Shown here: positions 2,497 through 64,000 of the stretch, piece after piece | How the letters are laid out: each line of letters opens with the position of its first letter | Numbering within the stretch: position 1 is the stretch's first letter | Assembly: GCA_964475855.1 (NCBI GenBank) | Contig: CAYZAV010000002.1 | Coordinates: forward strand, 51,933 to 115,932 | Reading direction: 5' to 3' | Length of the DNA: 64,000 bases | Source of the DNA: an uncultured Candidatus Saccharibacteria bacterium | Lineage (GTDB): Bacteria; Patescibacteriota; Minisyncoccia; Minisyncoccales; Staskawiczbacteraceae | The notes under the pieces: model-generated | Databases searched by the model: none | What the model was told of the DNA's origin: nothing | Seen by the model: the letters and a program-made list of their open reading frames with translations, nothing else | Translations under genes and position numbers: made by a program

Positions 2497-2685
2497 TTAT
2501 ACTTTCGCTACCGCTTTCATGCATTTAGTGCAGGAAAGAACGCGTTTTCCGTTAGCCAACCGTGTCCACTGTAAATTCGGGTACTTGCGTACTTTTTGGG
2601 TGGGGTTGTATTTTCCCCTCAATTTTACCAGTTGCCAGGCCATGCCTGACTTTTTGCCGCAGACGGCACAAATTTTTGAAGCCAT
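2497..2685 (-). CDS. rpmB: 50S ribosomal protein L28
   Basis: 62 aa, MASKICAVCGKK...NLQWTRL..GKRV.L.CTKC. L28-like length and pattern. Confidence 0.7.
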   Translation of the reverse strand: MASKICAVCGKKSGMAWQLVKLRGKYNPTQKVRKYPNLQWTRLANGKRVLSCTKCMKAVAKV

Positions 2686-2777
2686 GAATTGCTGAGCAGA
2701 GCGAAGAAATTCACCTCGAAAATTAGGCTTAAGTAAATAGTATACCTTGAGGCCTAATTTGCGCGGGATACCTTATT
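2686..2777 (-). repeat. Dispersed ~95-bp leader-proximal element, copy 1 (abuts the rpmB start codon)
   Basis: Aligns by eye with 30973..31066 and 47575..47745. Contains stem cgaaaattaggc/gcctaatttgcg and the ggataccttatt box. Confidence 0.7.
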
Positions 2778-2848
2778 CGCTGATATTTGATACTATCAAT
2801 ATACTATCCTATCTTTCAATATTTTACAATACCTGGTATAAATCATAT

Positions 2849-6879: not shown

Positions 6880-6883
6880 CTTC

Positions 6884-7060
6884 GCGCCAGCATCCGGGTA
6901 TGAATAGACGCGGTTAATTCCGCCAGCGCGGACCGGCAAAAAAAAGACTCTATCAAGAGTCTTTTTTTTGCCTATTACCGCTCACCTCTCGGCAATTTTC
7001 CCGCTTCGCGGGACCGTGCAAAATTGCCTCCGAGATGCATTCATACCCGGATGCTGTCGC
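6884..7060. repeat. 177-bp structured palindromic (MITE-like) element, copy 1
   Basis: Same length as 39341..39517, with 8 differences by my alignment. 22-nt terminal inverted repeats and an internal 17-bp A8/T8-flanked hairpin. Confidence 0.75.
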
Positions 7061-7070
7061 TATGCACCTC

Positions 7071-7162: not shown

Positions 7163-7558
7163 CTAGATTTCATCTCTCTGGAGAGCCAATCCTAGCCGTC
7201 GAAGTTTTTCTCGCACTTCATTAAGAGAGGTCATTCCGAAGTTACGAGAGCGATCGAGGAGGTCGTCAGCTGACAACTTAATCAGGTCGCCAAGGATAGC
7301 TTCACCCTGTGGACTGCCGGTAATGGCTCGTCTGCATCCTTTGCGTGCGCGCACCGATAGGTTTAGATCGCTGATTGACATTGCCAAGACCTTTTCTTGG
7401 GTTCTTTCTACTACGGTCGGAACCTCTTCAATTGTCATGGTGAACACGATCCGTTCGCCCGGATTCAGGATGCCATCCCGCTGAACCCAGTTCATCAGCA
7501 TGGTGCGGATCGATTCTTTCTTTTCATTGATGATTCGTACACGATCCTGTTGTTGCAT
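7163..7558 (-). CDS. Orphan RNA polymerase alpha C-terminal-domain-like (HhH) protein
   Basis: C-terminal half ISDLNLSVRARKGC...LGDLIKLSADDLLDRSRNFGMTSLNEVREKLRRLGLAL matches the alphaCTD pattern (LSVRaaNcL...dLl..rNfGkkSl.Ei...L...GLsL). GAGGT SD motif. G+C-rich. Confidence 0.7.
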   Translation of the reverse strand: MQQQDRVRIINEKKESIRTMLMNWVQRDGILNPGERIVFTMTIEEVPTVVERTQEKVLAMSISDLNLSVRARKGCRRAITGSPQGEAILGDLIKLSADDLLDRSRNFGMTSLNEVREKLRRLGLALQRDEI

Positions 7559-7595
7559 GATTACCTCATGTAAAAGTGCTAAAGACTCTGTCTCA

Positions 7596-7624
7596 ATAAT
7601 ATATTATAAAAATAATATTGTCAA
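7596..7624 (-). promoter_or_regulatory. Promoter of the alphaCTD-like gene
   Basis: Minus strand TTGACA(7624-7619)-17-TATTAT(7601-7596). Confidence 0.55.
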
Positions 7625-7661
7625 GTTTTTGGTGTGTAACCGATTTTGCGTGTTGAAGTGA

Positions 7662-9975: not shown

Positions 9976-10344
9976 ATGGCAACAGCCAAAGCAGAACCAA
10001 AGAAAAAAGTACCGGCTCATAAAGAGTCTGAGGCTGTTGCTATGCCCAAGCTTCGTATAAAGCTAAAGGCTTACGACCACAAAATTATCGATAGTTCTGT
10101 AAAGCAGATTATCGATATTGCCAATCGGTCAGGAGTTGAGGTGGTTGGCCCGGTGCCACTGCCGACAGAGATTTTGAAATATACCGTAAACCGGTCAACG
10201 TTCGTGCATAAAAACGCCCGGGAGCAATTTGAAATGCGGGTGCATAAACGGGTGATTGATGTAATGAGTCCGAATCCGGAAATCATTGAAGCTCTGCGGG
10301 ACTTGAATCTACCATCGGGTGTAGATATATCTATCAAGATATAG
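9976..10344 (+). CDS. rpsJ: 30S ribosomal protein S10 (possible 22-aa N-terminal extension)
   Basis: RIKLKAYDHKIIDSS core. Alternative start at M23 (nt 10042). Confidence 0.93.
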   Translation: MATAKAEPKKKVPAHKESEAVAMPKLRIKLKAYDHKIIDSSVKQIIDIANRSGVEVVGPVPLPTEILKYTVNRSTFVHKNAREQFEMRVHKRVIDVMSPNPEIIEALRDLNLPSGVDISIKI

Positions 10345-10496
10345 CTACACAAGGGATGGGTCGGAAGGGAAGGATTCCCTTTCGTGTAGGAAAACAGCGA
10401 GCGAAGCGAGCGTTAGAAACCGGGGGTTTCTAAGGAGTGAGCCGGAACCGAAGAGCTAGCCTGAGCGAAGCGAGGGCGATAAGGCGAGCGACGGAG

Positions 10497-10525
10497 TTGA
10501 CATTTCCATTAAAATTTAGTAACCT
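10497..10525 (+). promoter_or_regulatory. Candidate promoter for the rplC operon
   Basis: TTGACA(10497-10502)-17-TAACCT(10520-10525). The -10 is weak (only the TAnnnT positions match). Confidence 0.3.
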
Positions 10526-10596
10526 CTTATTATATTACGACAGTCGTTAACTTTCCCGCCAAGCTTTGGCGAAGTGGGATAACAACATTGCCTCAA

Positions 10597-10617
10597 CTGG
10601 GCATTCGCCCAGTTTTT
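10597..10617 (+). terminator. Terminator-like hairpin in the rplC leader (candidate attenuator)
   Basis: CTGGGC-attc-GCCCAG followed by ttttt, 23 nt upstream of rplC ATG 10640. Confidence 0.5.
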
Positions 10618-10639
10618 CATTACTATTCTAAAAAATCGC

Positions 10640-11245: not shown

Positions 11246-11282
11246 ATACTGGAAATTTCCAATTATCAATTTACAATTTACA

Positions 11283-11912
11283 ATGAAAACGATAGTTTAT
11301 AATCAAGAAGGAAAAGAGGCAGGTGAAGTCACGCTGCCAAAAGAAATATTCCAAGTTCAGATGAACGCTGATTTGGTGCACCAAGTGTTGATTTCTTATT
11401 CGGCCAACAAGCGGCAAGTTTCTGCTCACACTAAAAACCGCGGCGAAGTGCGTGGAGGAGGCCGCAAACCATGGAGGCAGAAAGGAACCGGACGTGCTAG
11501 GGCAGGTTCAACTCGCGGACCGATTTGGAAAGGTGGAGGAGTTTCCGGCGGCCCACGCAATGAAAAAGTATATGCACGTATTATCCCAGTCAAGATGCGT
11601 AAAAAAGCGTTGGCAATGGTATTGTCTGAAAAAGTAAAGAATAATTTATTCGTCATTGTGGATGGCTTGGACATGCAAACGGCAAAAACGAAGTCTATGG
11701 CAACCATGATTAAAAAGTTACCCGTTGCAAATGCCAGCAGATTGGTATTGTATACTACCGGAAAGAACGTATTTTTATCAGCCCGTAATATTGCCAAGAC
11801 AGGCGTAACTGAAATCCGTAATATGAATGTGGCTGATTTGCTCAATTACAAATATGTAGTTTTGAGCAAGGACGAAATTAAAGAAATTGAAAAAATGGTT
11901 AGCATTACATAA
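11283..11912 (+). CDS. rplD: 50S ribosomal protein L4
   Basis: RGGGRKPWRQKGTGRAR motif. Confidence 0.96.
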   Translation: MKTIVYNQEGKEAGEVTLPKEIFQVQMNADLVHQVLISYSANKRQVSAHTKNRGEVRGGGRKPWRQKGTGRARAGSTRGPIWKGGGVSGGPRNEKVYARIIPVKMRKKALAMVLSEKVKNNLFVIVDGLDMQTAKTKSMATMIKKLPVANASRLVLYTTGKNVFLSARNIAKTGVTEIRNMNVADLLNYKYVVLSKDEIKEIEKMVSIT

Positions 11913-13243: not shown

Positions 13244-13576
13244 ATGTCACGAAGTTTACGAAAAGGTCCGTATGTAGACCCAAGGTTGATGCAAAAAGTC
13301 CTCAATGTTCGCAAAGAGGAGAAGGTAATCATCAAAACCTGGGCAAGGCACTCAACGATTTCTCCGGAAATGGTGGGGTATACCTTTGGGGTGCATAACG
13401 GAAAAGAATTTGTGCCGGTCCATATCGGTGAGGACATGGTGGGACACAAATTGGGGGAATTTGCAGCTACTACCAAATTTGGCAGACACGGAGGAAAGAT
13501 GCAGCGTGATTTGGAGACGGGGGCGCAGCAAAAGGAAACAGCTAAGATTGTTGATGCCAAACCAGCTACGAAGTAA
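13244..13576 (+). CDS. rpsS: 30S ribosomal protein S19
   Basis: [21 protein letters not shown]. Confidence 0.96.
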
Positions 13577-13598
13577 CCAGTAACGAGTAATAAGTAAT

Positions 13599-15136: not shown

Positions 15137-15328
15137 ATGAAAACCGCAGAATTACGGAAAAAAAATACCAAAGAATTGGAAAAATCGGTGGTGGATCTCA
15201 AAAAAAAGTTGAGCGACATCCGGTTTAAGTTTTCCAGCAATCAGATGAAGAACGTGAAAGAATTGAGCAATATCAAAAAAGAAATTGCCCGCAGTTTGAC
15301 TATTATCAACGAATTTACGAATAAATAA
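15137..15328 (+). CDS. rpmC: 50S ribosomal protein L29
   Basis: 63 aa, position between rplP and rpsQ, ELRKKNTKELEK pattern. Confidence 0.9.
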   Translation: MKTAELRKKNTKELEKSVVDLKKKLSDIRFKFSSNQMKNVKELSNIKKEIARSLTIINEFTNK

Positions 15329-15397
15329 CGAATTTGCGAATTAAAGTGTAATTAACGAGTGTATTAGCAAATTCGTAACACATTCGTAAATTCGCTG
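15309..15397. repeat. Word-built inverted repeat (ttcgtaaa/cgaattt words) spanning the rpmC 3' end and spacer
   Basis: acgaatttacgaat...acgaatttgcgaat pairs with gcaaattcgt...attcgtaaattcg. Related to 42563..42660. Confidence 0.6.
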
Positions 15398-15407
15398 ATT
15401 AACTAAC

Positions 15408-16019: not shown

Positions 16020-16045
16020 TAATCAGTAACAAGTAACGAGTAACT

Positions 16046-17111: not shown

Positions 17112-17151
17112 CCATATATATTTCAATATTTAAATATTTAAATTTTTCGCA

Positions 17152-18149: not shown

Positions 18150-18491
18150 ATGTCATTTAAACAAGAAAAACGGAAAAGGATCCATGGAAGGATCAGGTCT
18201 CGCCTTATGGGAACTGCCATACGTCCGCGGCTTTCGGTATTCAAATCATCAAACCATATGTATGCCCAGCTGATTGATGATGATAGTGCAAAGGTACTGG
18301 TGATGGTTTCTGATATAAAAATGAAAAAAGGAAAAAAAACCGAACACTCCCTTGAAATTGGAAAATTGATTGCCAAAGAGGCATTGGCTAAAAAAATCGA
18401 AACGGTTGTTTTTGACCGTGGTGGTTTCGTATTCCATGGAAGGGTGAAGGCAGTAGCTGATGGTGCGCGCGAAGGCGGACTGAAGTTCTAA
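18150..18491 (+). CDS. rplR: 50S ribosomal protein L18
   Basis: RPRLSVFKSSNHMYAQLIDD...FDRGGFVFHGRVKA. Confidence 0.95.
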   Translation: MSFKQEKRKRIHGRIRSRLMGTAIRPRLSVFKSSNHMYAQLIDDDSAKVLVMVSDIKMKKGKKTEHSLEIGKLIAKEALAKKIETVVFDRGGFVFHGRVKAVADGAREGGLKF

Positions 18492-18529
18492 ATTTATAAT
18501 TATTCTAATTGACCTAATTATTCTAAAAA

Positions 18530-19074: not shown

Positions 19075-19506
19075 ATGCAAATCCACCAATTACAACCAAA
19101 ACACTCCTCAAAAGACCGTAAAATTGTTGGCAGGGGAGGCAAGAAAGGAACCTATTCCGGAAAGGGAGGAAAGGGTCAAACTGCCCGCGCCGGCCGAAAA
19201 TTAGCGCCGATTATCCGAGAATTGATCAAGCGATATCCAAAATTGAAAGGATACCGAGCTTTTAAGATAGGAAATACCACTCGGGTGGTGAATTTGGAAA
19301 TTCTGGAAAAACATGCAAAGGATGGCGATGTTATTAATCCTGAACAGTTGATTGCCAAGGGGATTGTGCGTATGATAAAAGGAAAGACTCCAGAAATTAA
19401 AATTTTGGGAACAGGCGAATTTTCAAAAAAAGTAACCATTGAAAATTGCAGGGTCTCAGCCAGCGCCAAGGTGGCCATTGAGAAAGCGGGAGGGAAAGTC
19501 ACATAA
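19075..19506 (+). CDS. rplO: 50S ribosomal protein L15 (starts 3 nt after the rpsE stop; no rpmD between them)
   Basis: GRGGKKGTYSGKGGKGQTARAG. Confidence 0.95.
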   Translation: MQIHQLQPKHSSKDRKIVGRGGKKGTYSGKGGKGQTARAGRKLAPIIRELIKRYPKLKGYRAFKIGNTTRVVNLEILEKHAKDGDVINPEQLIAKGIVRMIKGKTPEIKILGTGEFSKKVTIENCRVSASAKVAIEKAGGKVT

Positions 19507-19567
19507 CACGTAACATAGAACAGATAACAAATACGTTTTGTTTTATGTTCCATGTTTCATGTTCCAT
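19499..19567. repeat. Word-built inverted repeat (aacat/atgtt heptamers) between rplO and secY
   Basis: cacataacacgtaacatagaacagataacaaa / ttttgttttatgttccatgtttcatgttccatg. Confidence 0.6.
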
Positions 19568-22729: not shown

Positions 22730-22739
22730 ATTAGTAAGT

Positions 22740-22765
22740 CCTCGCTAAATCAGCGAGGCTTTTTT
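22740..22765 (+). terminator. Intrinsic terminator
   Basis: CCTCGCT-aaatc-AGCGAGG followed by cttttttc. Confidence 0.65.
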
Positions 22766-22794
22766 CTTGTAATAATTTTTGTTATAATTAATAT

Positions 22795-24273: not shown

Positions 24274-24957
24274 TTAAGGCTCAAAGATTTCCTCTCCGAA
24301 TTCTTCGCTGGTCTTGCTGACTAGTTGCTCGACACGTTGACGGCTGACACCTATTGCCTCGCCAATTTCTCGCAGGGTTTTACCCTTTTTGACCATCTTG
24401 ATGATGGTTTGCATCCGCCCACTTTCAAGATCTCTCCAAGTGGCAGACGTTCTTGAATCGAGCAGGTTTTCTTTGATAAGCTCGTGGGCATATAGGTCTA
24501 CTTTTCTTACTGAGACGCCAAGTAATGCTGCAATCTTGCCATTGGCAAGGCCTAGGTTCCGTAATAGTACCACGCGCTTTTTATAGCTTTGTCGTTGTTC
24601 TTTCGTAAAATGCTGCCTATGTGGCACAAGCCTTTTCTCTCTAATAAGCTGGGAGGCAATAACGATTACGATGCCAGAGGTAAGACCAAGCTTTTTGGCA
24701 ATGGCTTTATTGTCTAGGCCTTTGTTTCGTAGTCTGATAATCCCTTCTTCGCGCCGGATGTGTTCCTGTTCAGAAACAGTGAAGTTCCCCTTTTTCTGTT
24801 TTTTGACTTTTCCTTTCTTGATAAGCTGGTGGACCGTGTTTATTACTACGCAATACGGAAGCCCTGTTTTCTCTACAACCTCATTGTTACTGAAGCCTTG
24901 ACTGCGCAGTGCAATGATTTGCGATTCGCGGCGTTGCCGTTCTTGGTCGGATAGCAT
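24274..24957 (-). CDS. Protein built of four tandem ~57-aa sigma70-region-4/LuxR-like HTH modules
   Basis: Four internal repeats of the form R..II.LR..G.sn..IA..LG.s...V......LI..g. AAGGAG SD motif. G+C-rich. Confidence 0.65.
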   Translation of the reverse strand: MLSDQERQRRESQIIALRSQGFSNNEVVEKTGLPYCVVINTVHQLIKKGKVKKQKKGNFTVSEQEHIRREEGIIRLRNKGLDNKAIAKKLGLTSGIVIVIASQLIREKRLVPHRQHFTKEQRQSYKKRVVLLRNLGLANGKIAALLGVSVRKVDLYAHELIKENLLDSRTSATWRDLESGRMQTIIKMVKKGKTLREIGEAIGVSRQRVEQLVSKTSEEFGEEIFEP

Positions 24958-25089: not shown

Positions 25090-26802
25090 ATGAAATCCGC
25101 AGAACTTCGCCAAAAATTCCTGGATTTTTTTGAGAAAAAGGGGCATACAATTGTCTCTAGCGCTTCTTTAATTCCTGCAGAAACGGGAGCTGGGCAAAAG
25201 ACATTATTTATTACGGCGGGAATGCAGCCTTTGATACCGTTTTTATTAGGGGAAACGCATCCCGGGGGCAAGAGAATTGTTAATATTCAAAAATGCTTCA
25301 GGACCATTGATATTGATGAAGTCGGCGATGATACACATAACACTTTTTTCCAAATGTTGGGAAATTGGTCGCTGGGGGACTATTGGAAAAAAGAATCTAT
25401 TTCCTGGAGTTTTGAATTTTTAACGAAAGAATTGAATATTCCAATAGAAAAATTGGCAGTTTCTTGTTTTATTGGTGATGAACATGCGCCAAAAGATAAA
25501 GAGTCCGCTGAAATCTGGGAAAGCTTGGGAGTTACGAAAGAAAGAATCGCTTTTTTGCCAAAAGAGGATAACTGGTGGGGTCCGGTTGGAGAAACCGGTC
25601 CGTGCGGCCCCGACACAGAGATTTTTTATTGGAAAGCAAATGATGTGCCCGTGCCAAAAGAATTTGATTCGACTAATAAAAATTGGGTTGAGATTTGGAA
25701 TAATGTTTTCATGCAATATGTTAAGGATACCAATGGCAACTATGTTTTGGCAGAACAAAAAAATGTAGATACGGGTATGGGCTTTGAAAGGACGCTGGCT
25801 ATTTTGAATGGTTTTGAAAATATATACGAAACAGATTTGTTTGCGCCGGTTATGCATTTATTCCCAGGTCATGTTGATGAACGTAAAAAACGGATTATCG
25901 CCGACCACGCCAGGGCATCGGTATTTTTAATTTCAGATGGGGTGATTCCTTCAAATAAAGACCAAGGATATATATTGCGAAGATTGTTAAGAAGAATGAT
26001 GGTACATATGCGAGGCATTGAGCACGATATCTTTGAGCCGATTAAGAAAAATATAGAAATATACCAAGAAATATATGCTTTAGATGAGGGTAAAATTATA
26101 CCGGTAGTTAAAGAAGAGGCCGAGAAATTTGAAAAAACATTGGCGGCAGGATTAAAAGTGATTGAAAAAATAACCACTATTACCGGCAAAGAAGCTTTTT
26201 TACTCTATGAAACATATGGTTTTCCATTGGAAGTTTTAGAAGAAATACGCGAAGTTGTAAATCGAGAAGATTTTTTTGAAGAGTTAAAAAAACACCAAGA
26301 ATTATCTCGCACTGCTTCTGTGGGAATGTTTAAAGGGGGACTGGCGGATCATGATCCAAAAACTATAACATTGCACACAGCGCACCATTTGCTGTTGGCG
26401 GCTTTGCAGCAACTGTTAGGGTCAGAAGTAAAGCAAAAAGGCAGTAATATTACGCAAGAACGGTTACGGATTGATGTTTCGCTTGGGCGGAAAATTACCA
26501 AAGAAGAATTATTGGAGGTGGAAAATTTGGTTAATGAAAAAATTTCTGGCGCTCTGGATGTGGTAAAAAAAGAAATGTCGCTTTCGGAGGCACAGCAAAT
26601 TGGTGCAGAAATGGAATTTGGTGTAAAATACGGTAATACGGTGTCAGTTTACTTTATAGAAGAAAAAGATGGCACGTCGTTTAGTAAAGAATTTTGCGGC
26701 GGCCCGCATGTAAAAAATACATCGGAAATAGGTAAGTTTAAGATAATAAAAGAAGAAGCTTCTTCGCAGGGGGTGAGGAGGATAAAAGCAATCTTAGAGT
26801 AA
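25090..26802 (+). CDS. alaS: Alanyl-tRNA synthetase, compact form (570 aa, no C-Ala domain)
   Basis: MKSAELRQKFLDFFEKKGH start. Editing motifs HTAHHLL and CGGPHV. Start set at ATG 25090 with TTGCGG-17-TAGTAT-7 nt upstream. Confidence 0.9.
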   Translation: MKSAELRQKFLDFFEKKGHTIVSSASLIPAETGAGQKTLFITAGMQPLIPFLLGETHPGGKRIVNIQKCFRTIDIDEVGDDTHNTFFQMLGNWSLGDYWKKESISWSFEFLTKELNIPIEKLAVSCFIGDEHAPKDKESAEIWESLGVTKERIAFLPKEDNWWGPVGETGPCGPDTEIFYWKANDVPVPKEFDSTNKNWVEIWNNVFMQYVKDTNGNYVLAEQKNVDTGMGFERTLAILNGFENIYETDLFAPVMHLFPGHVDERKKRIIADHARASVFLISDGVIPSNKDQGYILRRLLRRMMVHMRGIEHDIFEPIKKNIEIYQEIYALDEGKIIPVVKEEAEKFEKTLAAGLKVIEKITTITGKEAFLLYETYGFPLEVLEEIREVVNREDFFEELKKHQELSRTASVGMFKGGLADHDPKTITLHTAHHLLLAALQQLLGSEVKQKGSNITQERLRIDVSLGRKITKEELLEVENLVNEKISGALDVVKKEMSLSEAQQIGAEMEFGVKYGNTVSVYFIEEKDGTSFSKEFCGGPHVKNTSEIGKFKIIKEEASSQGVRRIKAILE

Positions 26803-26897
26803 ATTATTCTAATTATACTAATTGCTCTAATTATTCTAACTATTTGGGTATTGGCATTTGATTAGGTCAATTAGAATAATTAGGTTAATTAGAAATT
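26802..26897. repeat. Word-built inverted repeat (ttctaatt words)
   Basis: aattattctaattatactaattgctctaattattctaac pairs with attaggtcaattagaataattaggttaattagaaatt. Confidence 0.6.
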
Positions 26898-30112: not shown

Positions 30113-30119
30113 TTAATCG

Positions 30120-30180
30120 CATGGAGCACGTGATATGGAACAATTAACCTAAGGTTATGTTTCATGTTTCATGCTTCATG
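30120..30180. repeat. Word-built inverted repeat (catg/gtttcat words) between rpsD and rpoA
   Basis: catggagcacgtgatatggaacaattaacc-taa-ggttatgtttcatgtttcatgcttcatg. Confidence 0.6.
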
Positions 30181-30190
30181 ATTAAAGTAT

Positions 30191-30970
30191 ATGATACCGC
30201 TACCAGTAGCGCCAATTGTAATCAAAAAAGGCAAAAACCAAGCCGTTTTTGAAGTGCAGGGATTGTATCCTGGTTATGGGGTAACCGTGGGAAACACTTT
30301 GCGCAGAGTATTGCTTTCCTCATTGGAGGGCGTAGCTGTTACCGAGGTGAAAATCAAAGGCGTGGCACACGAATTTTCCACCATTGCCGGCGTGCAGGAA
30401 GATGTGATTATGATTTTGTTGAACCTGAAAAATTTAAGGTTTAAAATACACGAAGGCACCACCCAAAAAGTGATACTTTCAGTAAAAGGTGAAAAAGAAG
30501 TGACCGGGGCCGATTTTGCACTTTCACCACAGGTGAAACTGGCGAATCCAGAGCTTCATATTGCCACCATTACTGATAAAAAAACTGAATTGGAAATTGA
30601 GATAAAAATTGAAAAAGGAATTGGGTATGAGCCAAAGGATCATCGGAAAATAAAAAGCACGGAAATTGGAGCGATTATATTGGATGCTATTTTTACACCG
30701 ATTAAAAACGTTAATTTTCAAGTGGAAAGCATGCGTATCGGCGACCGGACCGACTTTGACAAGTTATCACTTCAGATGGAAACCGACGGAACTCTGACCC
30801 CAGAAGAAGCGTTCTACGAAGCGTGCGATATTATCATCAAACACTTCAGTATTATTTTCGAAGGAAAAGGAATGGTAATGCCTGAAGCGATAACAGAAGG
30901 AGGGGAAGAAGAAAAACCGGCCAAAAAAGCAGCTGCCAAGAAAAAAGCGGTTGCTAAGAAAAAGAAATAA
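30191..30970 (+). CDS. rpoA: DNA-directed RNA polymerase alpha subunit, N-terminal domain only (259 aa, Lys-rich tail, no CTD)
   Basis: NTD motifs GNTLRRVLLSS, FTPIKNVNFQVE, RIGDRTDFDKL. Ends ...EEEKPAKKAAAKKKAVAKKKK*. Confidence 0.9.
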   Translation: MIPLPVAPIVIKKGKNQAVFEVQGLYPGYGVTVGNTLRRVLLSSLEGVAVTEVKIKGVAHEFSTIAGVQEDVIMILLNLKNLRFKIHEGTTQKVILSVKGEKEVTGADFALSPQVKLANPELHIATITDKKTELEIEIKIEKGIGYEPKDHRKIKSTEIGAIILDAIFTPIKNVNFQVESMRIGDRTDFDKLSLQMETDGTLTPEEAFYEACDIIIKHFSIIFEGKGMVMPEAITEGGEEEKPAKKAAAKKKAVAKKKK

Positions 30971-30972
30971 AG

Positions 30973-31066
30973 AATAAGGTATCCCGCGGAAATCAGGCCG
31001 CAAGGTATACGATATAATTAAGACTGATTTCCGAGGTGAATTTACTCACTTCGTTCATAAATTCAA
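30973..31066 (+). repeat. Dispersed ~95-bp leader-proximal element, copy 2 (fills the rpoA stop to rplQ ATG gap)
   Basis: aataaggtatcccgcggaaatcaggccgcaaggtatacgatataattaagactgatttccgaggtgaatttactcacttcgttcataaattcaaATG. Confidence 0.75.
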
Positions 31067-31421: not shown

Positions 31422-31787
31422 ATGGAAGAAATAATAAAACGGGAACAACATATCATTGACGCGACTGACAAAGTATTGGGCCGATTGGCTACCCAAGTGG
31501 TTATTTTGCTTCGCGGAAAAAACAAGCCGGGGTTTGAAGCTTACAAAGATATGGGAGATTATGTCACTATTAAAAATGTGGATAAGCTTAGATTTACCGG
31601 AAACAAATTCAAGAATAAAATTTATTACCACCACACCTTGTATATGGGAGGATTGAAAGAGGCTACTATGAAAGAGCTGTCTGAAAAGAAAGGGCACTCC
31701 GAAGTTTTTAGGAAAGCAGTAATGGGTATGCTTACCAAAAATAAACTACGCGCGAGGCAAATAAAGCGTTTACGCTTTGAAAAGTAA
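31422..31787 (+). CDS. rplM: 50S ribosomal protein L13
   Basis: IIDATDKVLGRLATQVV.LLRGK. Confidence 0.94.
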   Translation: MEEIIKREQHIIDATDKVLGRLATQVVILLRGKNKPGFEAYKDMGDYVTIKNVDKLRFTGNKFKNKIYYHHTLYMGGLKEATMKELSEKKGHSEVFRKAVMGMLTKNKLRARQIKRLRFEK

Positions 31788-31802
31788 CCAGTAATCCGCA
31801 AA

Positions 31803-32377: not shown

Positions 32378-32405
32378 AAAAAGCACCGAAAAACGGTGCT
32401 TTTTG
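32378..32405 (+). terminator. Intrinsic terminator after rpsI
   Basis: AGCACCG-aaaaa-CGGTGCT followed by ttttg. Confidence 0.7.
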
Positions 32406-32417
32406 TTGCAGTTTCGA

Positions 32418-34924: not shown

Positions 34925-34955
34925 TAAAAAAAGCCCTTTCGCGGGTGCGAAAGGG
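34925..34955 (-). terminator. Terminator of YfiH-like paralog 1
   Basis: CCCTTTCGC-gggt-GCGAAAGGG with an A-run on the plus strand. Confidence 0.65.
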
Positions 34956-34964
34956 TATGGTATT

Positions 34965-39321: not shown

Positions 39322-39340
39322 GATGTTGTTTGTTCGATCC

Positions 39341-39517
39341 GCGACAGCATTCGGGTATGAATAGACGCGGTTAATTCCGCCAGCGCGGACCGGTAAAAAA
39401 AAGACTCTGCGAAGAGTCTTTTTTTTACCTATTACCGCTCACCTCTCGGCAATTTTCCCGCTTCGCGGGACCGTGCAAAATTGCCTCCGAGATGCATTCA
39501 TACCCGAATGCTGTCGC
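39341..39517. repeat. 177-bp structured palindromic (MITE-like) element, copy 2
   Basis: Perfect 22-nt terminal inverted repeats gcgacagcattcgggtatgaat / attcatacccgaatgctgtcgc. Same orientation as copy 1. Confidence 0.75.
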
Positions 39518-39523
39518 TACACG

Positions 39524-39936: not shown

Positions 39937-40719
39937 ATGAACCAGTTGGAATTTTTGAAGAAAATGTGGGATGGTGGGCAATTGGCTCATGCTTATATTT
40001 TTTCGGGGGCTGACATGGTGGGGTTGAAAAAAGCGGCCAATGAATTGCTCGGACATGCCGGCTGTAAATTTCCGGATGTGATTACACTTTCCAGTGCGCA
40101 AAGCGACAGTTCCATTAAAAATGAAAAGGATATGATGGAAATCGATATTGATCAGATTCGTCGTGTCCAGCAATTTTTATCATATAAATCATATAACGGG
40201 GGACTGAAAGCCGTGGTGGTTGAACATGCAGAACGGATGAACGTCGAAGCCCAAAACTGTTTTTTGAAAAATTTGGAAGAACCAAAGGGCCAGACATTGA
40301 TCATGTTATTATGCGACAAGCCTGAATATTTATTGCCCACCATTGCCTCACGCTGTCAGACAATCCGGTTTTCCGCAAAAAGCGAAGCGCAAGAAGCAGT
40401 ATTGCCCCAAGTTTTGCAAAATGTAATTAATGGGGACTTGGCTGAAAAATTCAAGTTTGCCAAAACAGCCAACCTGGAGGGAGAAAATTTCGAGAATATG
40501 TTAGCGGGTCTACAGCGACATTTTCGGAATTTACTTCTGGATAAAATCCAGGGAGAGACTAATCTACCTGCCTCGCCGGCAGGCGGGCGAATTACATCCG
40601 AATATACGAATGAAAAGATGGTATCGGTACTGCGGCAGATTGAAACATTGCAGCACCAGGCGGCAACCACCAATCTTAATAACAAACTGGCATTGGAAAT
40701 ATTATTACTTGAGTTATAA
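39937..40719 (+). CDS. holB: DNA polymerase III delta' subunit
   Basis: LAHAYIFSG..., NCFLKNLEEP, LPTIASRCQ motifs. Start at MNQLEFL. Confidence 0.8.
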   Translation: MNQLEFLKKMWDGGQLAHAYIFSGADMVGLKKAANELLGHAGCKFPDVITLSSAQSDSSIKNEKDMMEIDIDQIRRVQQFLSYKSYNGGLKAVVVEHAERMNVEAQNCFLKNLEEPKGQTLIMLLCDKPEYLLPTIASRCQTIRFSAKSEAQEAVLPQVLQNVINGDLAEKFKFAKTANLEGENFENMLAGLQRHFRNLLLDKIQGETNLPASPAGGRITSEYTNEKMVSVLRQIETLQHQAATTNLNNKLALEILLLEL

Positions 40720-40791
40720 AGTTCATAAAGTTATAAAGTTCATAAAGATACGAAGAACTTTAAAAACTTTACGAACTTTCAAACTTTATAA
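40715..40791. repeat. Word-built inverted repeat (aaagtt 9-mers)
   Basis: ttataaagttcataaagttataaagttcataaag pairs with actttaaaaactttacgaactttcaaactttataa. Paired aaagtt cores are separated by 3-nt mismatches. Confidence 0.6.
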
Positions 40792-40800
40792 TTAAAATTT

Positions 40801-41358
40801 ATGGCAGCACTAAAAGAATTTATGGATCGGGCAAAGCCGGAATTTGAAAAGGCAATCAAATTTTTGGAGGGTGAAATAGCCAAAATCCGCACATCGCGGG
40901 CGACTCCGGCGTTAATTGAAGACATTGAGGTTGATTGTTTTGGTCAAAAATTTTCCCTAAAACAGTTAGCGGCCATTTCCGCGCCTCAATCAAACCAACT
41001 GGTTATTCAACCTTGGGATCAGTCATATATAGAACCGATTGAGAAAGCCATTTTAAAATCCGGCCTTGGCATGTCGGCGGCGGTTGATAAAAATTTGATC
41101 CGGTTGAGCCTGCCCACACTGACGGAGGAATATCGCCACAGTCTGGTGAAGGTGCTCAATGAAAAAGCGGAAGATTGCCGACAGGTGCTGCGCCGCCAGC
41201 GCGAAGATATTTGGAACAAAATCCAGGCTGCCCAAAAAACCAAAGATCTTTCCGAAGACGATAAATTCCGAGGCAAAGATGAATTACAGAAACTGATTGA
41301 CGAATTTAATAAAAAAATCAAGGAATTAGTGGAGAGAAAAGAACAGGAAGTCTCCTAG
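40801..41358 (+). CDS. frr: Ribosome recycling factor
   Basis: 185 aa, IRTSRATPALIEDIEVD pattern. Confidence 0.93.
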   Translation: MAALKEFMDRAKPEFEKAIKFLEGEIAKIRTSRATPALIEDIEVDCFGQKFSLKQLAAISAPQSNQLVIQPWDQSYIEPIEKAILKSGLGMSAAVDKNLIRLSLPTLTEEYRHSLVKVLNEKAEDCRQVLRRQREDIWNKIQAAQKTKDLSEDDKFRGKDELQKLIDEFNKKIKELVERKEQEVS

Positions 41359-41359
41359 T

Positions 41360-41429
41360 AAAATTTACAATATACAATACACAATATACAAACAAATTTT
41401 GTAAATTGTAGATTGTGTATTGTATATTT
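41360..41429. repeat. Word-built inverted repeat (tacaata heptamers)
   Basis: tacaatacacaat (41372-41384) pairs perfectly with attgtgtattgta (41412-41424). Confidence 0.6.
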
Positions 41430-42561: not shown

Positions 42562-42562
42562 T

Positions 42563-42660
42563 CAGCGAATTTGCTAATATATTACGAATTTACGAATGTG
42601 GCGAACGAGCGATCACGTAAAGTGTATTCGTAAATTCGTAACTAATTCGTAAATTCGTTG
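42563..42660. repeat. Word-built inverted repeat (ttcgtaaa words), related to 15309..15397
   Basis: cagcgaatttgctaatatattacgaatttacgaatg pairs with tattcgtaaattcgtaactaattcgtaaattcgttg. Confidence 0.6.
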
Positions 42661-42668
42661 ATGATACT

Positions 42669-46796: not shown

Positions 46797-46886
46797 TTCT
46801 ATTGATAATAGAATTCGCGGAACCTCGCGGAAATTAACACGGAAAAACGCAGAAGTATGCAGCGTAGTTCCGCGTGAAATTCCGCG
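46794..46886. repeat. Word-built inverted repeats (ttcgcggaa words)
   Basis: Palindrome aattctatt-gat-aatagaatt, then ttcgcggaacctcgcggaaatt pairing with agttccgcgtgaaattccgcg. Confidence 0.55.
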
Positions 46887-46912
46887 TCATTCAGCGCATT
46901 TTATGCAATAAA

Positions 46913-47466: not shown

Positions 47467-47574
47467 TTACCTTAGAAATCCAACGCCCACCGAAAATGCC
47501 ACCATGCTGATTGCCACTAGGCTGATGAGGGCTACCCAAACGCCTTTAAGTATCTTTTTTTGGTTAAATTTCAT
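47467..47574 (-). CDS. Possible 35-aa small membrane protein
   Basis: My translation: MKFNQKKILKGVWVALISLVAISMVAFSVGVGFLR. Its ATG abuts the dispersed element exactly as at rpmB and rplQ. Confidence 0.3.
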   Translation of the reverse strand: MKFNQKKILKGVWVALISLVAISMVAFSVGVGFLR

Positions 47575-47745
47575 GAATTTATGAACGAAGTGAATAAATT
47601 CACCTCGGAAATCAGGCTTAATTATATCGTATACCTTGCGGCCTGATTTCCGCTGGATACCTTATTCGGAAATCAGGCTTAATTATATCGTATACCTTGC
47701 GGCCTGATTTACGCGGGATACCTTATTTTCTCGCAGGATACCTTT
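47575..47745 (-). repeat. Dispersed leader-proximal element, copy 3, with a tandem 61-bp duplication
   Basis: Units 47606-47666 and 47667-47727 differ at 2 positions. A partial third ggatacctttatt box follows. Confidence 0.75.
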
Positions 47746-51673: not shown

Positions 51674-51752
51674 GTGACAAAAGTAGCAAAGGAAGCAGAA
51701 GATACAAAGGCCTTTGAGCCATCTGTATCCTTTGTTACGTTTGAAACTTTTT
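51674..51752. repeat. Hairpin built from GTKRCAAAG-type 9-mers
   Basis: gtgacaaaa gtagcaaag gaagcagaa gatacaaag pairs with cctttgagccatctgtatcctttgttacgtttgaaac. Confidence 0.55.
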
Positions 51753-62440: not shown

Positions 62441-63952
62441 ATGGCAAAGCCCAAGAAAAAAAAGAAACTAGTGCTTGCACGAAAAAAACCGGTAAAAAAA
62501 CCGAAAAAAGTTTTAGTAAAGAAAAAACCGATTACCAAGAGAATAAAAGCCAAGACCTTCCGCGGAGTTTCGCGTAAAATTCAGATTGATTCCGCGCCGG
62601 TAGCAGCCTTTCCGGCGGAGGCATTTTTCAAGGCGAAAATAAAAGTAATTGGCATTGGCGGGGGAGGTGGGTCTATTGTTTCCGAAATTGGCAGGTCTTT
62701 GAACAAGGCCACATTTGTGGTGGCGGATACTGATGAACGCGCGTTTAAAAAACGCCAGGGCATCAAACAGTTTTTATTCGGCCAGGAATTGACACATGGT
62801 TTGGGTACCGGATTAAACACCGACTTGGCACAGCGGGCCGCTGAAAGTGAAAAAGAAAATATCGCTAAATTATTTGACGGCCAGGATATTGTTATTTTTA
62901 TCGCCTGTTTGGGCGGAGGATTAGGAAGTGGTGCCACCCAAATATTCGCCGAGGCGGCCAAAGATTTCGGGGGAATTACCTTTGGTATTTTTACGCTGCC
63001 ATTTAAATTTGAAGGCAAAAACAAGCAAAAAATCGCAGCCAAGGCGTTGCGGGAACTACGTAAATCACTTAATGTTTCCATTACTATTCCCAACGAGCGT
63101 ATTTTTAAAATCATCCAGGAAAACACGGCCATTACTGATGCGTTCAGTACGGTTAACCGCAGCCTGATAGAATCGTTGGAAAGTTTGATAGATTTGATTT
63201 ACAATCCCGGTGTCATTAATATTGACTTCGCCGATCTGCGCGCTATTTTAAAGGGACGGGGGAATTTGGCGTTTTTAAATACGGCCGAGGCTTCCGGGGC
63301 TAATAGGGCGGATACCATCATTCATGAAATTTTGCATAACCCCCTATACCAAAGTAATAATTTTTCCGCCGAAAAAGTGCTATTTAACATTGCGAGCGGG
63401 GGAAATTTAAGCATGTTTGAGGTGGATAAAATAAGCCGGGTCATTTCTGAACATAACCAGTCCGCCAAGATTATTTTCGGGATTTCCAAAGACAATTCTC
63501 TGAAAAATAAAATCAAGACGACGCTGCTCATGACGGGGGCACCGCTTGGGGTGGAGCCCGATGCTACAAAGGTTACAAAGGTTGCAAAGGTGGCAGAGGT
63601 CGCAAAGGCTCCGGAAGCTACAAAGGTGACAAAGGCTACAAAAGTGGCAAAGACCACAAAGGTGGCAAAGGTGGTCTCGCCTTCGCCTAAGGCTTCGGCG
63701 AAACAAAGAAAGAAAAAAGTGGTGCCGGCGTCAAAAACCCCACCGCTTCAAAATGTTCCCGTTTTTTCCAATGTGTACGAGCCGGCCGAAAATTCGCGTA
63801 AATTGAGCATTGTTGAGCCACCACAGAAAAAAGCCATCAGGCGCACAGCATTGGAAGTGAAAAAAGCCGAAGAAATACAAGAACAAAGGCAATCCGATCA
63901 GGAAAAAGAGTGGGAAATTCCAGCATTTTTAAGAAAAATAAAGATCAAATAA
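62441..63952 (+). CDS. ftsZ: Cell division protein FtsZ with a ~60-aa Lys-rich N-terminal extension and a repeat-built C-terminal linker
   Basis: GIGGGGGS, ACLGGGLGSGA tubulin-signature region. C-terminal peptide EWEIPAFLRK. Confidence 0.9.
   Translation: MAKPKKKKKLVLARKKPVKKPKKVLVKKKPITKRIKAKTFRGVSRKIQIDSAPVAAFPAEAFFKAKIKVIGIGGGGGSIVSEIGRSLNKATFVVADTDERAFKKRQGIKQFLFGQELTHGLGTGLNTDLAQRAAESEKENIAKLFDGQDIVIFIACLGGGLGSGATQIFAEAAKDFGGITFGIFTLPFKFEGKNKQKIAAKALRELRKSLNVSITIPNERIFKIIQENTAITDAFSTVNRSLIESLESLIDLIYNPGVINIDFADLRAILKGRGNLAFLNTAEASGANRADTIIHEILHNPLYQSNNFSAEKVLFNIASGGNLSMFEVDKISRVISEHNQSAKIIFGISKDNSLKNKIKTTLLMTGAPLGVEPDATKVTKVAKVAEVAKAPEATKVTKATKVAKTTKVAKVVSPSPKASAKQRKKKVVPASKTPPLQNVPVFSNVYEPAENSRKLSIVEPPQKKAIRRTALEVKKAEEIQEQRQSDQEKEWEIPAFLRKIKIK
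63563..63670 (+). repeat. Twelve tandem in-frame 9-bp units (GTKRCAAAG family) inside ftsZ
   Basis: gctacaaag gttacaaag gttgcaaag gtggcagag gtcgcaaag gctccggaa gctacaaag gtgacaaag gctacaaaa gtggcaaag accacaaag gtggcaaag. Confidence 0.85.
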
Positions 63953-64000
63953 AGTTGATAGTTATTAGTTTATAGTTTTAGTTAAGTGGTTATCAGTTAA

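Follow-up and report, generated by a model that had tools for sequence, protein, structure and literature searches.

Operon-internal foldback repeats built from tandem 7-9-nt words in a Staskawiczbacteria-like bacterium

The spacer between holB and frr in a 64,000-nt stretch of DNA from an uncultured bacterium (contig CAYZAV010000002.1; the whole stretch is referred to as the window) is occupied by a foldback, i.e. two opposed arrays of short tandem words that form a 27-bp, AU-rich hairpin, which begins at the holB stop codon and leaves 9 nt ahead of the frr start. Foldbacks of the same architecture, with one copy per spacer and two opposed arrays of 7-9-nt words around a short loop, are present at other junctions of the window and in related genomes. 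In our view, with a probability of about 0.5, they constitute a library of self-propagating foldback repeats, which would grow by word slippage, be copied between spacers and persist only inside operons. The host is a Candidatus Staskawiczbacteria-like bacterium of the Candidate Phyla Radiation (CPR), as the relatives of its RseP protein, which are 59-66% identical, are nearly all labelled Staskawiczbacteria. No close relative of the organism was found in the collections searched, in which the best RseP match was 73% identical.

Structure and placement of the foldbacks

The 5' arm of the holB-frr foldback comprises four words of the ATAAAGTT/CATAAAGTT type, in the order (T)ATAAAGTT CATAAAGTT ATAAAGTT CATAAAG, the first of which includes the holB stop codon (TAA, 40717-40719). 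A loop of 13 nt separates it from the 3' arm, which also exhibits four words, GAACTTTAA AAACTTTAC GAACTTTCA AACTTTAT, and the frr ATG is found 9 nt further, at 40801. Four AAAGTT-type words are opposed to four AACTTT-type words in this arrangement, and Tandem Repeats Finder (TRF) detected arrays of period 9 (and 17), one with 4.2 copies at 40712-40747 and one with 3.8 copies at 40756-40788. RNAfold predicted four helices of 5-8 bp, split by 1x1, 1x2 and 2x2 internal loops, with an energy of -22.2 kcal/mol, versus -9.4 +/- 2.5 kcal/mol in 200 dinucleotide shuffles (z = -5.17; none of the 200 as stable). The initial annotation was correct about the pairing of the aaagtt cores; the mismatches between them, which it described as 3-nt spacers throughout, are internal loops of 1-3 nt.

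The other sites of the window are listed in Table 1, and each was scored for energy and arm periodicity against 300 dinucleotide shuffles. In eight of the nine other spacers, z-scores lay between -3.1 and -6.7 and at most one of 300 shuffles was as stable, and in six of the ten listed sites the 7-9-nt periodicity of the arms exceeded that of all 300 shuffles. Arrays with a period of 6-10 were 4.3-fold enriched in intergenic DNA, which represents 9.4% of the window (11 of 27; p = 1.6e-5). At least eight different words are present in the 64 kb, two of which occur twice. As nine of the ten sites lie beyond their shuffles, the mismatched inverted repeats of tandem 7-9-nt words reported by the initial annotation are real and are no by-product of A+T richness: 0-1 of 200-300 shuffles preserving dinucleotide composition reached the observed energies.

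Some words are also present as solo, one-armed arrays, in the window (18486-18526) as well as in loci L001 and L064 of the survey described below; the L064 array exhibits the TACAATA word of the frr-rseP foldback. The AGTAACN runs previously noticed in ribosomal protein spacers were recovered by TRF at two sites, and two copies of the word are present at the third. Downstream in the window, the C-terminal part of ftsZ contains a 9-nt tandem repeat in 12 copies (also detected as 18- and 27-nt repeats; 63563-63674), which is coding and forms no hairpin.

Table 1. Word foldbacks and solo word arrays of the window.
Feature	Location	Position	Strand	Evidence
Focal foldback, AAAGTT/AACTTT words	holB-frr	40712..40791	+	TRF, RNAfold vs shuffles
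TACAATA/TATTGTA heptamer foldback	frr-rseP	41360..41429	+	z = -5.76; periodicity 0/300 shuffles
ACGAATTT/AAATTCGT foldback, CGAAT family, termini ATCAGCGAAT...ATTCGTTGAT	rseP-proS	42562..42662	+	z = -6.16
Second CGAAT-family foldback	rpmC (L29)-rpsQ (S17)	15301..15399	+	z = -6.73
CATGTTY/RAACATG heptamer foldback	rplO (L15)-secY	19499..19567	+	z = -3.08; matches in L029, L027, L005, L030, L014
CATGTTTC-family foldback	rpsD (S4)-rpoA	30113..30185	+	z = -6.64; 90% over 68 nt in L008
TTCTAATTA/TAATTAGAA 9-mer foldback	alaS-GlxA-like ORF	26802..26897	+	z = -5.77; nine-species family alignment
TTCGCGGAA/TTCCGCG foldback	gatA-hypothetical ORF	46797..46900	+	z = -3.73; periodicity reached by 10/300 shuffles
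ACAAAGG/CCTTTGT foldback	ftsX-tRNA-Gln (51759)	51674..51752	+	z = -4.63; periodicity 0/300
AGTTNNN word array, truncated by the window end, no partner arm within the window	after ftsZ	63953..64000	+	z = -1.5, not significant as seen
Solo (one-arm) TTCTAATTA-word array	directly upstream of rpsE	18486..18526	+	TRF
Solo AGTAACN heptamer run	ends 1 nt before rplV (L22) ATG	13571..13597	+	TRF
Solo AGTAACN heptamer run	ends 1 nt before rplX (L24) ATG	16025..16044	+	TRF
Two AGTAAYC words	rplM-rpsI	31787..31800	+	sequence inspection
Solo AATTTAC heptamer run, 4.4 copies	directly upstream of ORF starting 11283	11254..11284	+	TRF
Solo ATATTTAA octamer run, 3.8 copies	upstream of ORF starting 17152	17118..17147	+	TRF

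The survey comprised the window and 80 related loci (L001-L080) of about 20 kb around rseP each, 1.3 Mb altogether, in which every spacer of 35-400 nt was folded. A hairpin was considered periodic if its arms were periodic and it had a minimum of 15 bp. Such hairpins were observed in 67 of the 524 co-directional spacers, in 4 of the 100 divergent spacers and in none of the 77 convergent spacers (Fisher p = 1e-5). Among the four "divergent" cases are a gene-call error and a 5' leader that follows a promoter-like site. The foldbacks are nearly confined to putative transcription units, where each follows a stop codon and precedes the next start codon or a tRNA. The genes of the window are almost all on the + strand, and its foldbacks occupy the junctions L29-S17, L15-SecY, AlaRS-GlxA-like open reading frame (ORF), S4-RpoA, HolB-Frr, Frr-RseP, RseP-ProRS, GatA-hypothetical ORF and FtsX-tRNA-Gln. 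The rpoA gene next to one of them appears to be split: the ORF at 30191-30970 (+; 259 aa) exhibits only the N-terminal RNA_pol_L and RNA_pol_A_bac domains, and a separate 131-aa ORF located 23 kb away (7163-7558, -) carries the alpha C-terminal domain (PF03118).

The typical periodic hairpin has a median of 27 bp with 23% G:C pairs, is 74 nt long and fills about 90% of its spacer, as its stem begins about 4 nt past the stop codon and ends about 6 nt ahead of the ATG. The word period is 7 in 44 of the 74 periodic hairpins, 8 in 10 and 9 in 8. A T-run is present 3' of the hairpin in 7 of 45 cases (16%), which agrees with the earlier remark that few foldbacks have one. A scan for promoter and terminator consensus sequences between 38 and 48 kb gave nothing specific and no terminator-like site at any hairpin. 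Against Rfam, only four tRNAs of the window reached the gathering score, and at E <= 1 only generic microRNA-precursor hairpin models far below threshold were added. Shine-Dalgarno-like motifs (GGAG/GAGG/AGGA at -18 to -4; window and L001-L080) were found ahead of 8.7% of starts, their frequency at control positions being 9.8-13%; behind periodic hairpins, not one of 56 genes exhibits such a motif. Judged from these motif counts, initiation in these Paceibacterota appears to be Shine-Dalgarno-independent.

Word families and their turnover

On the sequence evidence, the words are families common to Staskawiczbacteria and other Paceibacterota of the CPR and are not private to each spacer. The arms of the window hairpins have matches of 18-68 nt and 92-100% identity in other species, at different, non-orthologous junctions, with flanking proteins that are only about 60-65% identical, and the "variable" bases recur together with the words. 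That each spacer uses a different word, as first described, is loosely true within the window only, and the idea that each word was generated in situ, privately to its spacer, is not supported, given these matches and the invariant cores described below. For the holB-frr hairpin, exact stretches of 20 nt and 19 nt, including the "variable" triplets, recur in a hairpin of a Yanofskybacteria locus (L080) whose RseP is 36% identical. Many metagenome contigs contain AAAGTT/AACTTT foldbacks with differing loops, in two cases between co-directional tRNA genes. A scan of a collection of 240 loci gave at least 22 AAAGTT foldback matches in at least 19 loci, with a pattern that is too permissive. Among the recurrent words, AAATTAG is present in seven genomes, and AAATTCT and AATAATTAG are present in six each.

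Two families could be followed across genomes. The TTCTAATTA family is represented by nine full copies, taken from nine species. Its 5' arm has CTAATT three times without change, as its 3' arm has AATTAG, while the interiors and loops vary in length and sequence; the gene that follows a copy differs between species. Three genomes contain two copies of the CGAAT family each, and the two copies of a genome are closer to each other than to those of the other genomes; by this clustering, they are genome-specific subfamilies. The two copies of the window paired with each other in its dispersed-repeat comparison. All CGAAT copies keep the termini ATCA[AG]CGAAT...ATTCG.TGAT (3' terminus ATTCGTTGAT). 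The L29 ORF (15137-15328) enters the 5' arm of one of these foldbacks, and its last ~9 codons (from ~15301) and its stop codon are repeat-derived. As the word cores are invariant, the structure is not provable by compensatory change (covariation). No CTAATT foldback was present among the matches listed for 120 viral contigs, for which the pattern was too permissive; nothing thus ties the elements to phages.

The occurrence of the foldbacks is sporadic. In three Nealsonbacteria-like loci with 91-92% DNA identity (L052, L056 and L057), whole word-hairpins of 75-120 nt differ, the hairpin of one corresponding to a spacer of 4-26 nt in the others, and each lineage exhibits its own hairpins. At every orthologous junction examined, the spacer is 30 nt or shorter in most species, a long hairpin (at least 18 bp) is found in 10-25% of the species and a periodic one in 2-16%. 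The highest values were obtained for rpsD-rpoA, with 8 of 18 long and 4 of 18 periodic, and no examined junction keeps its hairpin in all species. The L064 species has only 3 nt between holB and frr and 1 nt between frr and rseP.

Traces of word slippage are visible in individual hairpins. One L056 hairpin exhibits three perfect GTCTGAA copies in its 5' arm and an imperfect 3' arm, which points to recent slippage in one arm only, and the orthologous hairpins of L003 and L006 contain the same word variants in scrambled order. Slippage and scrambling of this kind would leave cores that pair while their 1-3 variable bases mismatch periodically. Of the mechanism initially proposed, slippage plus inversion, the slippage of whole words is supported by these cases, whereas private generation of words in situ is not. 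The length variation between strains that had been anticipated was not observed: copy numbers do not differ between four assemblies of the window organism (the 403,851-bp metagenomic source contig, ENA ERZ27247820 k141_502662, and three others), which are 100% identical over up to 20.6 kb, or between five assemblies of the L064 species (99.9-100% identical), in which the (TTGTAAA)n spacer is unchanged.

Repeats and structured spacers of other types are also present. A dispersed repeat of 94-97 nt, distinct from the word foldbacks, occurs in four copies and both orientations in the window (2683-2779, 30972-31065, 47572-47668 and 47633-47729), one copy being in the rpoA-rplQ spacer and two in tandem, and contains an internal AAATCAGGC...GCCTGATTT hairpin. 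A long, G+C-richer palindromic element of 180 nt is found in two 96%-identical copies (6883-7062 and 39340-39519), each enclosing a perfect terminator-like stem (AAAAAAAAGACTCT...AGAGTCTTTTTTTT) in a spacer that folds at -105 to -125 kcal/mol. Another G+C-rich palindromic family (CCCCGCCCTCTA...TAGAGGGCGGGG) is present in the spacers L002:5073-5165, L060:6785-6897 and L067:1569-1716 and 7455-7654. Just upstream of the S10-spc cluster, after the ORF at 9976-10344, lies a G+C-rich structured spacer of 295 nt (10345-10639; -86 kcal/mol), whose GGGTCGG...CCCGTGTAGGAAA blocks have counterparts in L057:7230-7440 and L064:16600-16780 and no Rfam match at gathering score. The L072:17695-17952 spacer contains several TTATCCACA-like (DnaA-box-like) 9-mers in both orientations and may be a replication origin.

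Competing explanations

Taken together, several features argue for a library of self-propagating repeats and not for conserved sites of regulation: the foldbacks occur sporadically, are gained and lost fast and form genome-specific subfamilies, their termini are conserved whereas their interiors are free, and other dispersed repeats are present in the genome. Replication slippage would add or remove whole words in the arms. As any word would pair with any anti-word through the conserved core of 5-6 nt, the hairpin would survive slippage, and as the 1-3 variable bases of one arm have no mirrored counterpart in the other, periodic mismatches would result. Duplication of copies to new spacers within a genome would give rise to the genome-specific subfamilies. 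The element would be co-transcribed and its RNA would fold on itself, so that the ~75-120 nt inserted are looped out. Such an insert would add neither terminator nor promoter, and about 10 nt would separate the stop codon from the following start, in a host that probably does not depend on Shine-Dalgarno pairing. The absence from convergent spacers suggests that the elements persist only where the transcript matters. The hairpins would be dispensable for the host and would at most influence how stable mRNA segments are or how they are processed, an effect that has been proposed for the short tandemly repeated repetitive (STRR) hairpins of cyanobacteria.

As a foldback reads identically on both strands, its orientation is not inferable, and wobble pairing is the only handle on whether the RNA or the DNA folds. 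Arm mismatches, counted by symmetric DNA alignment of the arms, are more often of the G.U type than of the A.C type in periodic hairpins (80 vs 51), in other long hairpins (129 vs 90) and in the TTCTAATTA family (22 vs 7). The rpsD-rpoA foldback exhibits four G.U pairs and is more stable in the sense orientation (-28.7 kcal/mol) than in the antisense one (-19.7 kcal/mol).

Several points weigh against a self-propagating library. Another family exhibits about five G.U-type and about nine A.C-type mismatches, and the holB-frr hairpin is more stable as antisense (-28.9 vs -22.2 kcal/mol). The G.U excess could also stem from a bias towards C-to-T changes on the coding strand, which is G-rich (GC skew of about +0.12). 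The evidence for pairing at the RNA level is thus mixed, and the case for a constraint at this level relies mainly on operon-internal placement. No transposase or other mobilising enzyme was found among the ~40 window proteins scanned or tabulated, and no target-site duplication is evident. The absence from convergent spacers is not what would be expected of a selfish element that is only tolerated. The invariance of the word cores without covariation suggests sequence-specific recognition, and the preference for a period of 7 is left without explanation. As repeats are unchanged in assemblies that are 99.9-100% identical, slippage must be slow on that time scale. Finally, relatives were sampled over only ~20 kb around rseP per genome.

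The hairpins could instead be punctuation of the RNA selected by the host, such as RNase III-type cleavage sites or protective 5' or 3' stem-loops that set the half-lives of individual cistrons, the words themselves being incidental. The strict operon-internal placement, which includes positions before and between tRNAs, and the overall excess of G.U over A.C mismatches are consistent with this explanation. RNase III requires a minimum stem length, and stems of 27 bp are long enough for it. There is also a precedent in Anabaena variabilis, where processing-site stem-loops prolong the half-life of the nifH1 transcript (PMC4284476). Nevertheless, selected punctuation is difficult to reconcile with junctions of which none retains its hairpin across species and with genomes of 91-92% identity that differ by whole hairpins. 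Selection on structure only would moreover permit covariation, yet the cores are invariant, and the G.U signal is inconsistent. We consider this explanation possible but doubtful.

Invariant cores across species without covariation would imply that the words themselves are recognised, and they could be read by a sequence-specific trans-acting system. In one version, this would be a general initiation or coupling device of bacteria without Shine-Dalgarno pairing (CPR, cyanobacteria, Bacteroidetes and Beggiatoaceae), in which the opposed array would act as a built-in anti-element looping out the spacer. In the other, it would be a new mobilisation enzyme specific for hairpins or words. A system of this type is unlikely.

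Translational coupling, or a shunt, for a ribosome that does not use Shine-Dalgarno pairing is quite unlikely. The hairpin would join the stop and start codons for re-initiation, and the solo runs would serve as unstructured A/U-rich landing pads. The short distances on either side of the stem (about 4 nt from the stop codon and 6 nt to the ATG) and the lack of a Shine-Dalgarno signal in these genomes would fit such a function. It has already been proposed for STRR hairpins (PMC2670836), and TAACTGA runs end 1 nt before starts in the ribosome-binding-site-poor spacers of Beggiatoaceae, including ribosomal protein operons (PMC4679880). However, foldbacks also precede tRNA genes and lie between tRNAs, where there is no translation, relatives do with spacers of 1-26 nt, and either word polarity can adjoin the ATG.

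Very unlikely are arrays of binding sites at the DNA level, iterated for ribbon-helix-helix, multi-helix-turn-helix (HTH) or nucleoid proteins or for a recombinase. Invariant cores, a fixed spacing of 7-9 bp and the lack of covariation would be expected of them, and tandem and inverted sites of 7-8 bp are typical of ribbon-helix-helix repressors such as omega and MetJ. The window itself encodes a 227-aa protein with four tandem sigma-4/LuxR-type HTH repeats of ~55 aa (24274-24957, -), which, from its sequence, is a conceivable binder of tandem words. This protein had no relatives in the indexed search, and similarity to PDB entries was only weak, to SigA region 4 and NarL. At least eight words in 64 kb would, however, demand many cognate proteins in a small genome, and the sites lie inside operons and not at promoters.

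As T-runs are mostly absent, the foldbacks do not correspond to terminators, in agreement with the initial annotation, and a role in termination is unlikely; that they are intrinsic terminators or attenuators of an unusual, T-run-independent type is highly improbable. They are stable hairpins directly 3' of stop codons, but none is present in the 77 convergent spacers, where terminators must be, their stems have only 23% G:C pairs and only 16% are followed by a T-run. Canonical terminators with a G+C-rich stem and a T-run are found elsewhere in the window (e.g. 22730-22770, 32385-32410 and 34933-34956), and one foldback separates L29 from S17 within the S10-spc cluster of ribosomal protein genes. 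The probability that the foldbacks are a chance product of A+T-rich, low-complexity sequence is negligible, as chance is refuted by the shuffles and the cores are identical in many genomes, although the spacers are A+T-rich.

Relation to known repeats and significance

Tandem-heptamer hairpins of the STRR type have been described in cyanobacteria for many years, and the foldbacks look like the same kind of element rather than a new one. In filamentous cyanobacteria, STRR sequences are "usually made up of 7 bp repeats" and form hairpins, for instance between hupS and hupL; in 2009 their function was still described as unknown, with a role in the stability of transcripts or in translational coupling proposed (PMC2670836). 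Both types consist of tandem, mostly 7-bp words in non-coding DNA, with several dispersed multi-copy families per genome, and in both, opposed arrays give hairpins between genes that are co-transcribed (in the CPR genomes, probably so). A period of 7 is also dominant in the CPR foldbacks. The differences are the host, the A+T-rich and different words, the additional use of 8-9-nt words and the fact that the CPR element usually fills the spacer from stop to start. The invariance of cores across species and the placement in operons only are documented here for the CPR foldbacks, and no contrast with STRRs is implied. The STRR1-3 words are CCCCAGT, TTGGTCA and CAACAGT; they gave no tandem copies in the window and one TTGGTCA doublet, in L014, among the 80 loci. 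As these words are absent from the window and the host belongs to the CPR, we claim the same kind of element and not the same sequence family.

Direct repeats of the TAACTGA heptamer are known from Beggiatoaceae, cyanobacteria and Bacteroidetes (MacGregor 2015, PMC4679880). They are found near start codons without a canonical ribosome-binding site and in ribosomal protein operons, and the solo AGTAACN runs before rplV and rplX are comparable in this respect. They differ in that a single word is used and that direct repeats are the rule, with one inverted case among 170 sets, whereas the CPR foldbacks comprise many words, usually opposed. No TAACTGA doublet is present in the window or the 80 loci. 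A preprint on Nostoc reports that heptamer runs affect expression, with no mechanism given.

Repetitive extragenic palindromes (REPs) and the composite elements BIME and REPIN are also dispersed extragenic palindromes, often in operons, with hairpins that act on mRNA stability and with family evolution within genomes (PMC3116915, PMC3733652). However, REPs are G+C-rich palindromes of 20-40 bp with a GTAG or CGTC tag and are linked to a REP-associated tyrosine transposase (RAYT), whereas the CPR foldbacks exhibit arms of 25-45 nt made of tandem words and A+T-rich stems. No GTAG/CGTC tag was found at the flanks of the nine hairpins, and no RAYT (Y1 transposase) was found among the ~40 proteins scanned or tabulated in the 64-kb window, to which this search was confined.

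Miniature inverted-repeat transposable elements (MITEs), such as Correia/NEMIS and ERIC, are similar in that their inverted termini are conserved around an interior that varies, in that they are polymorphic for presence or absence and in that they are co-transcribed as hairpins. Terminal inverted repeats and variable interiors of this type are present in the TTCTAATTA and CGAAT families. Eukaryotic Foldback transposons exhibit inverted arms built of short tandem subrepeats. In contrast, the CPR elements are much shorter (60-140 nt), with many families in a genome of ~1 Mb; no consistent target-site duplication was found at the flanks of the CGAAT family, and a search of the loci for an autonomous partner was negative, no arm pair flanking an ORF in any of them. 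Integron attC sites are imperfect palindromes of 57-141 nt located after the stop codons of co-directional genes, with a structure more conserved than their sequence, and resemble the foldbacks in this. The RYYYAAC/GTTRRRY core sites are present in none of the nine hairpins, and the flanking genes are core housekeeping genes, not cassettes. Tandem interspaced guide RNA (TIGR) arrays are CPR repeat arrays missed by standard repeat finders, whose units, made of dual repeats and spacers, are processed to guide RNAs of 36 nt; these RNAs exhibit box C/D-like motifs, and a tas gene with a Nop domain is adjacent (TIGR-Tas; PMC12045711). The likeness is limited to repeat arrays in CPR bacteria, as the foldbacks have a period of 7-9 nt and one hairpin per spacer, and no Nop-domain protein is encoded within 10 kb on either side of frr (30.8-51.4 kb) or was found among the scanned proteins. 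On their defining features, the foldbacks could be assigned to none of these groups (REP/REPIN, Correia/ERIC-type MITEs, attC sites and TIGR arrays), nor to an Rfam family. A full-text literature search of incomplete coverage found no description of such foldbacks in CPR bacteria.

The presence of the same architecture in streamlined CPR genomes indicates that tandem-heptamer hairpins are no cyanobacterial oddity, and it ties the phenomenon to lineages without Shine-Dalgarno-led initiation. In the sampled region, about one in eight operon junctions is occupied by members of a word library that extends across species, with none in convergent spacers. The word foldbacks account for most of the long spacers in otherwise compact operons, and a gene can take its stop codon and C-terminal residues from them, as L29 does. 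The elements are also useful markers of recent divergence between near-identical CPR genomes.

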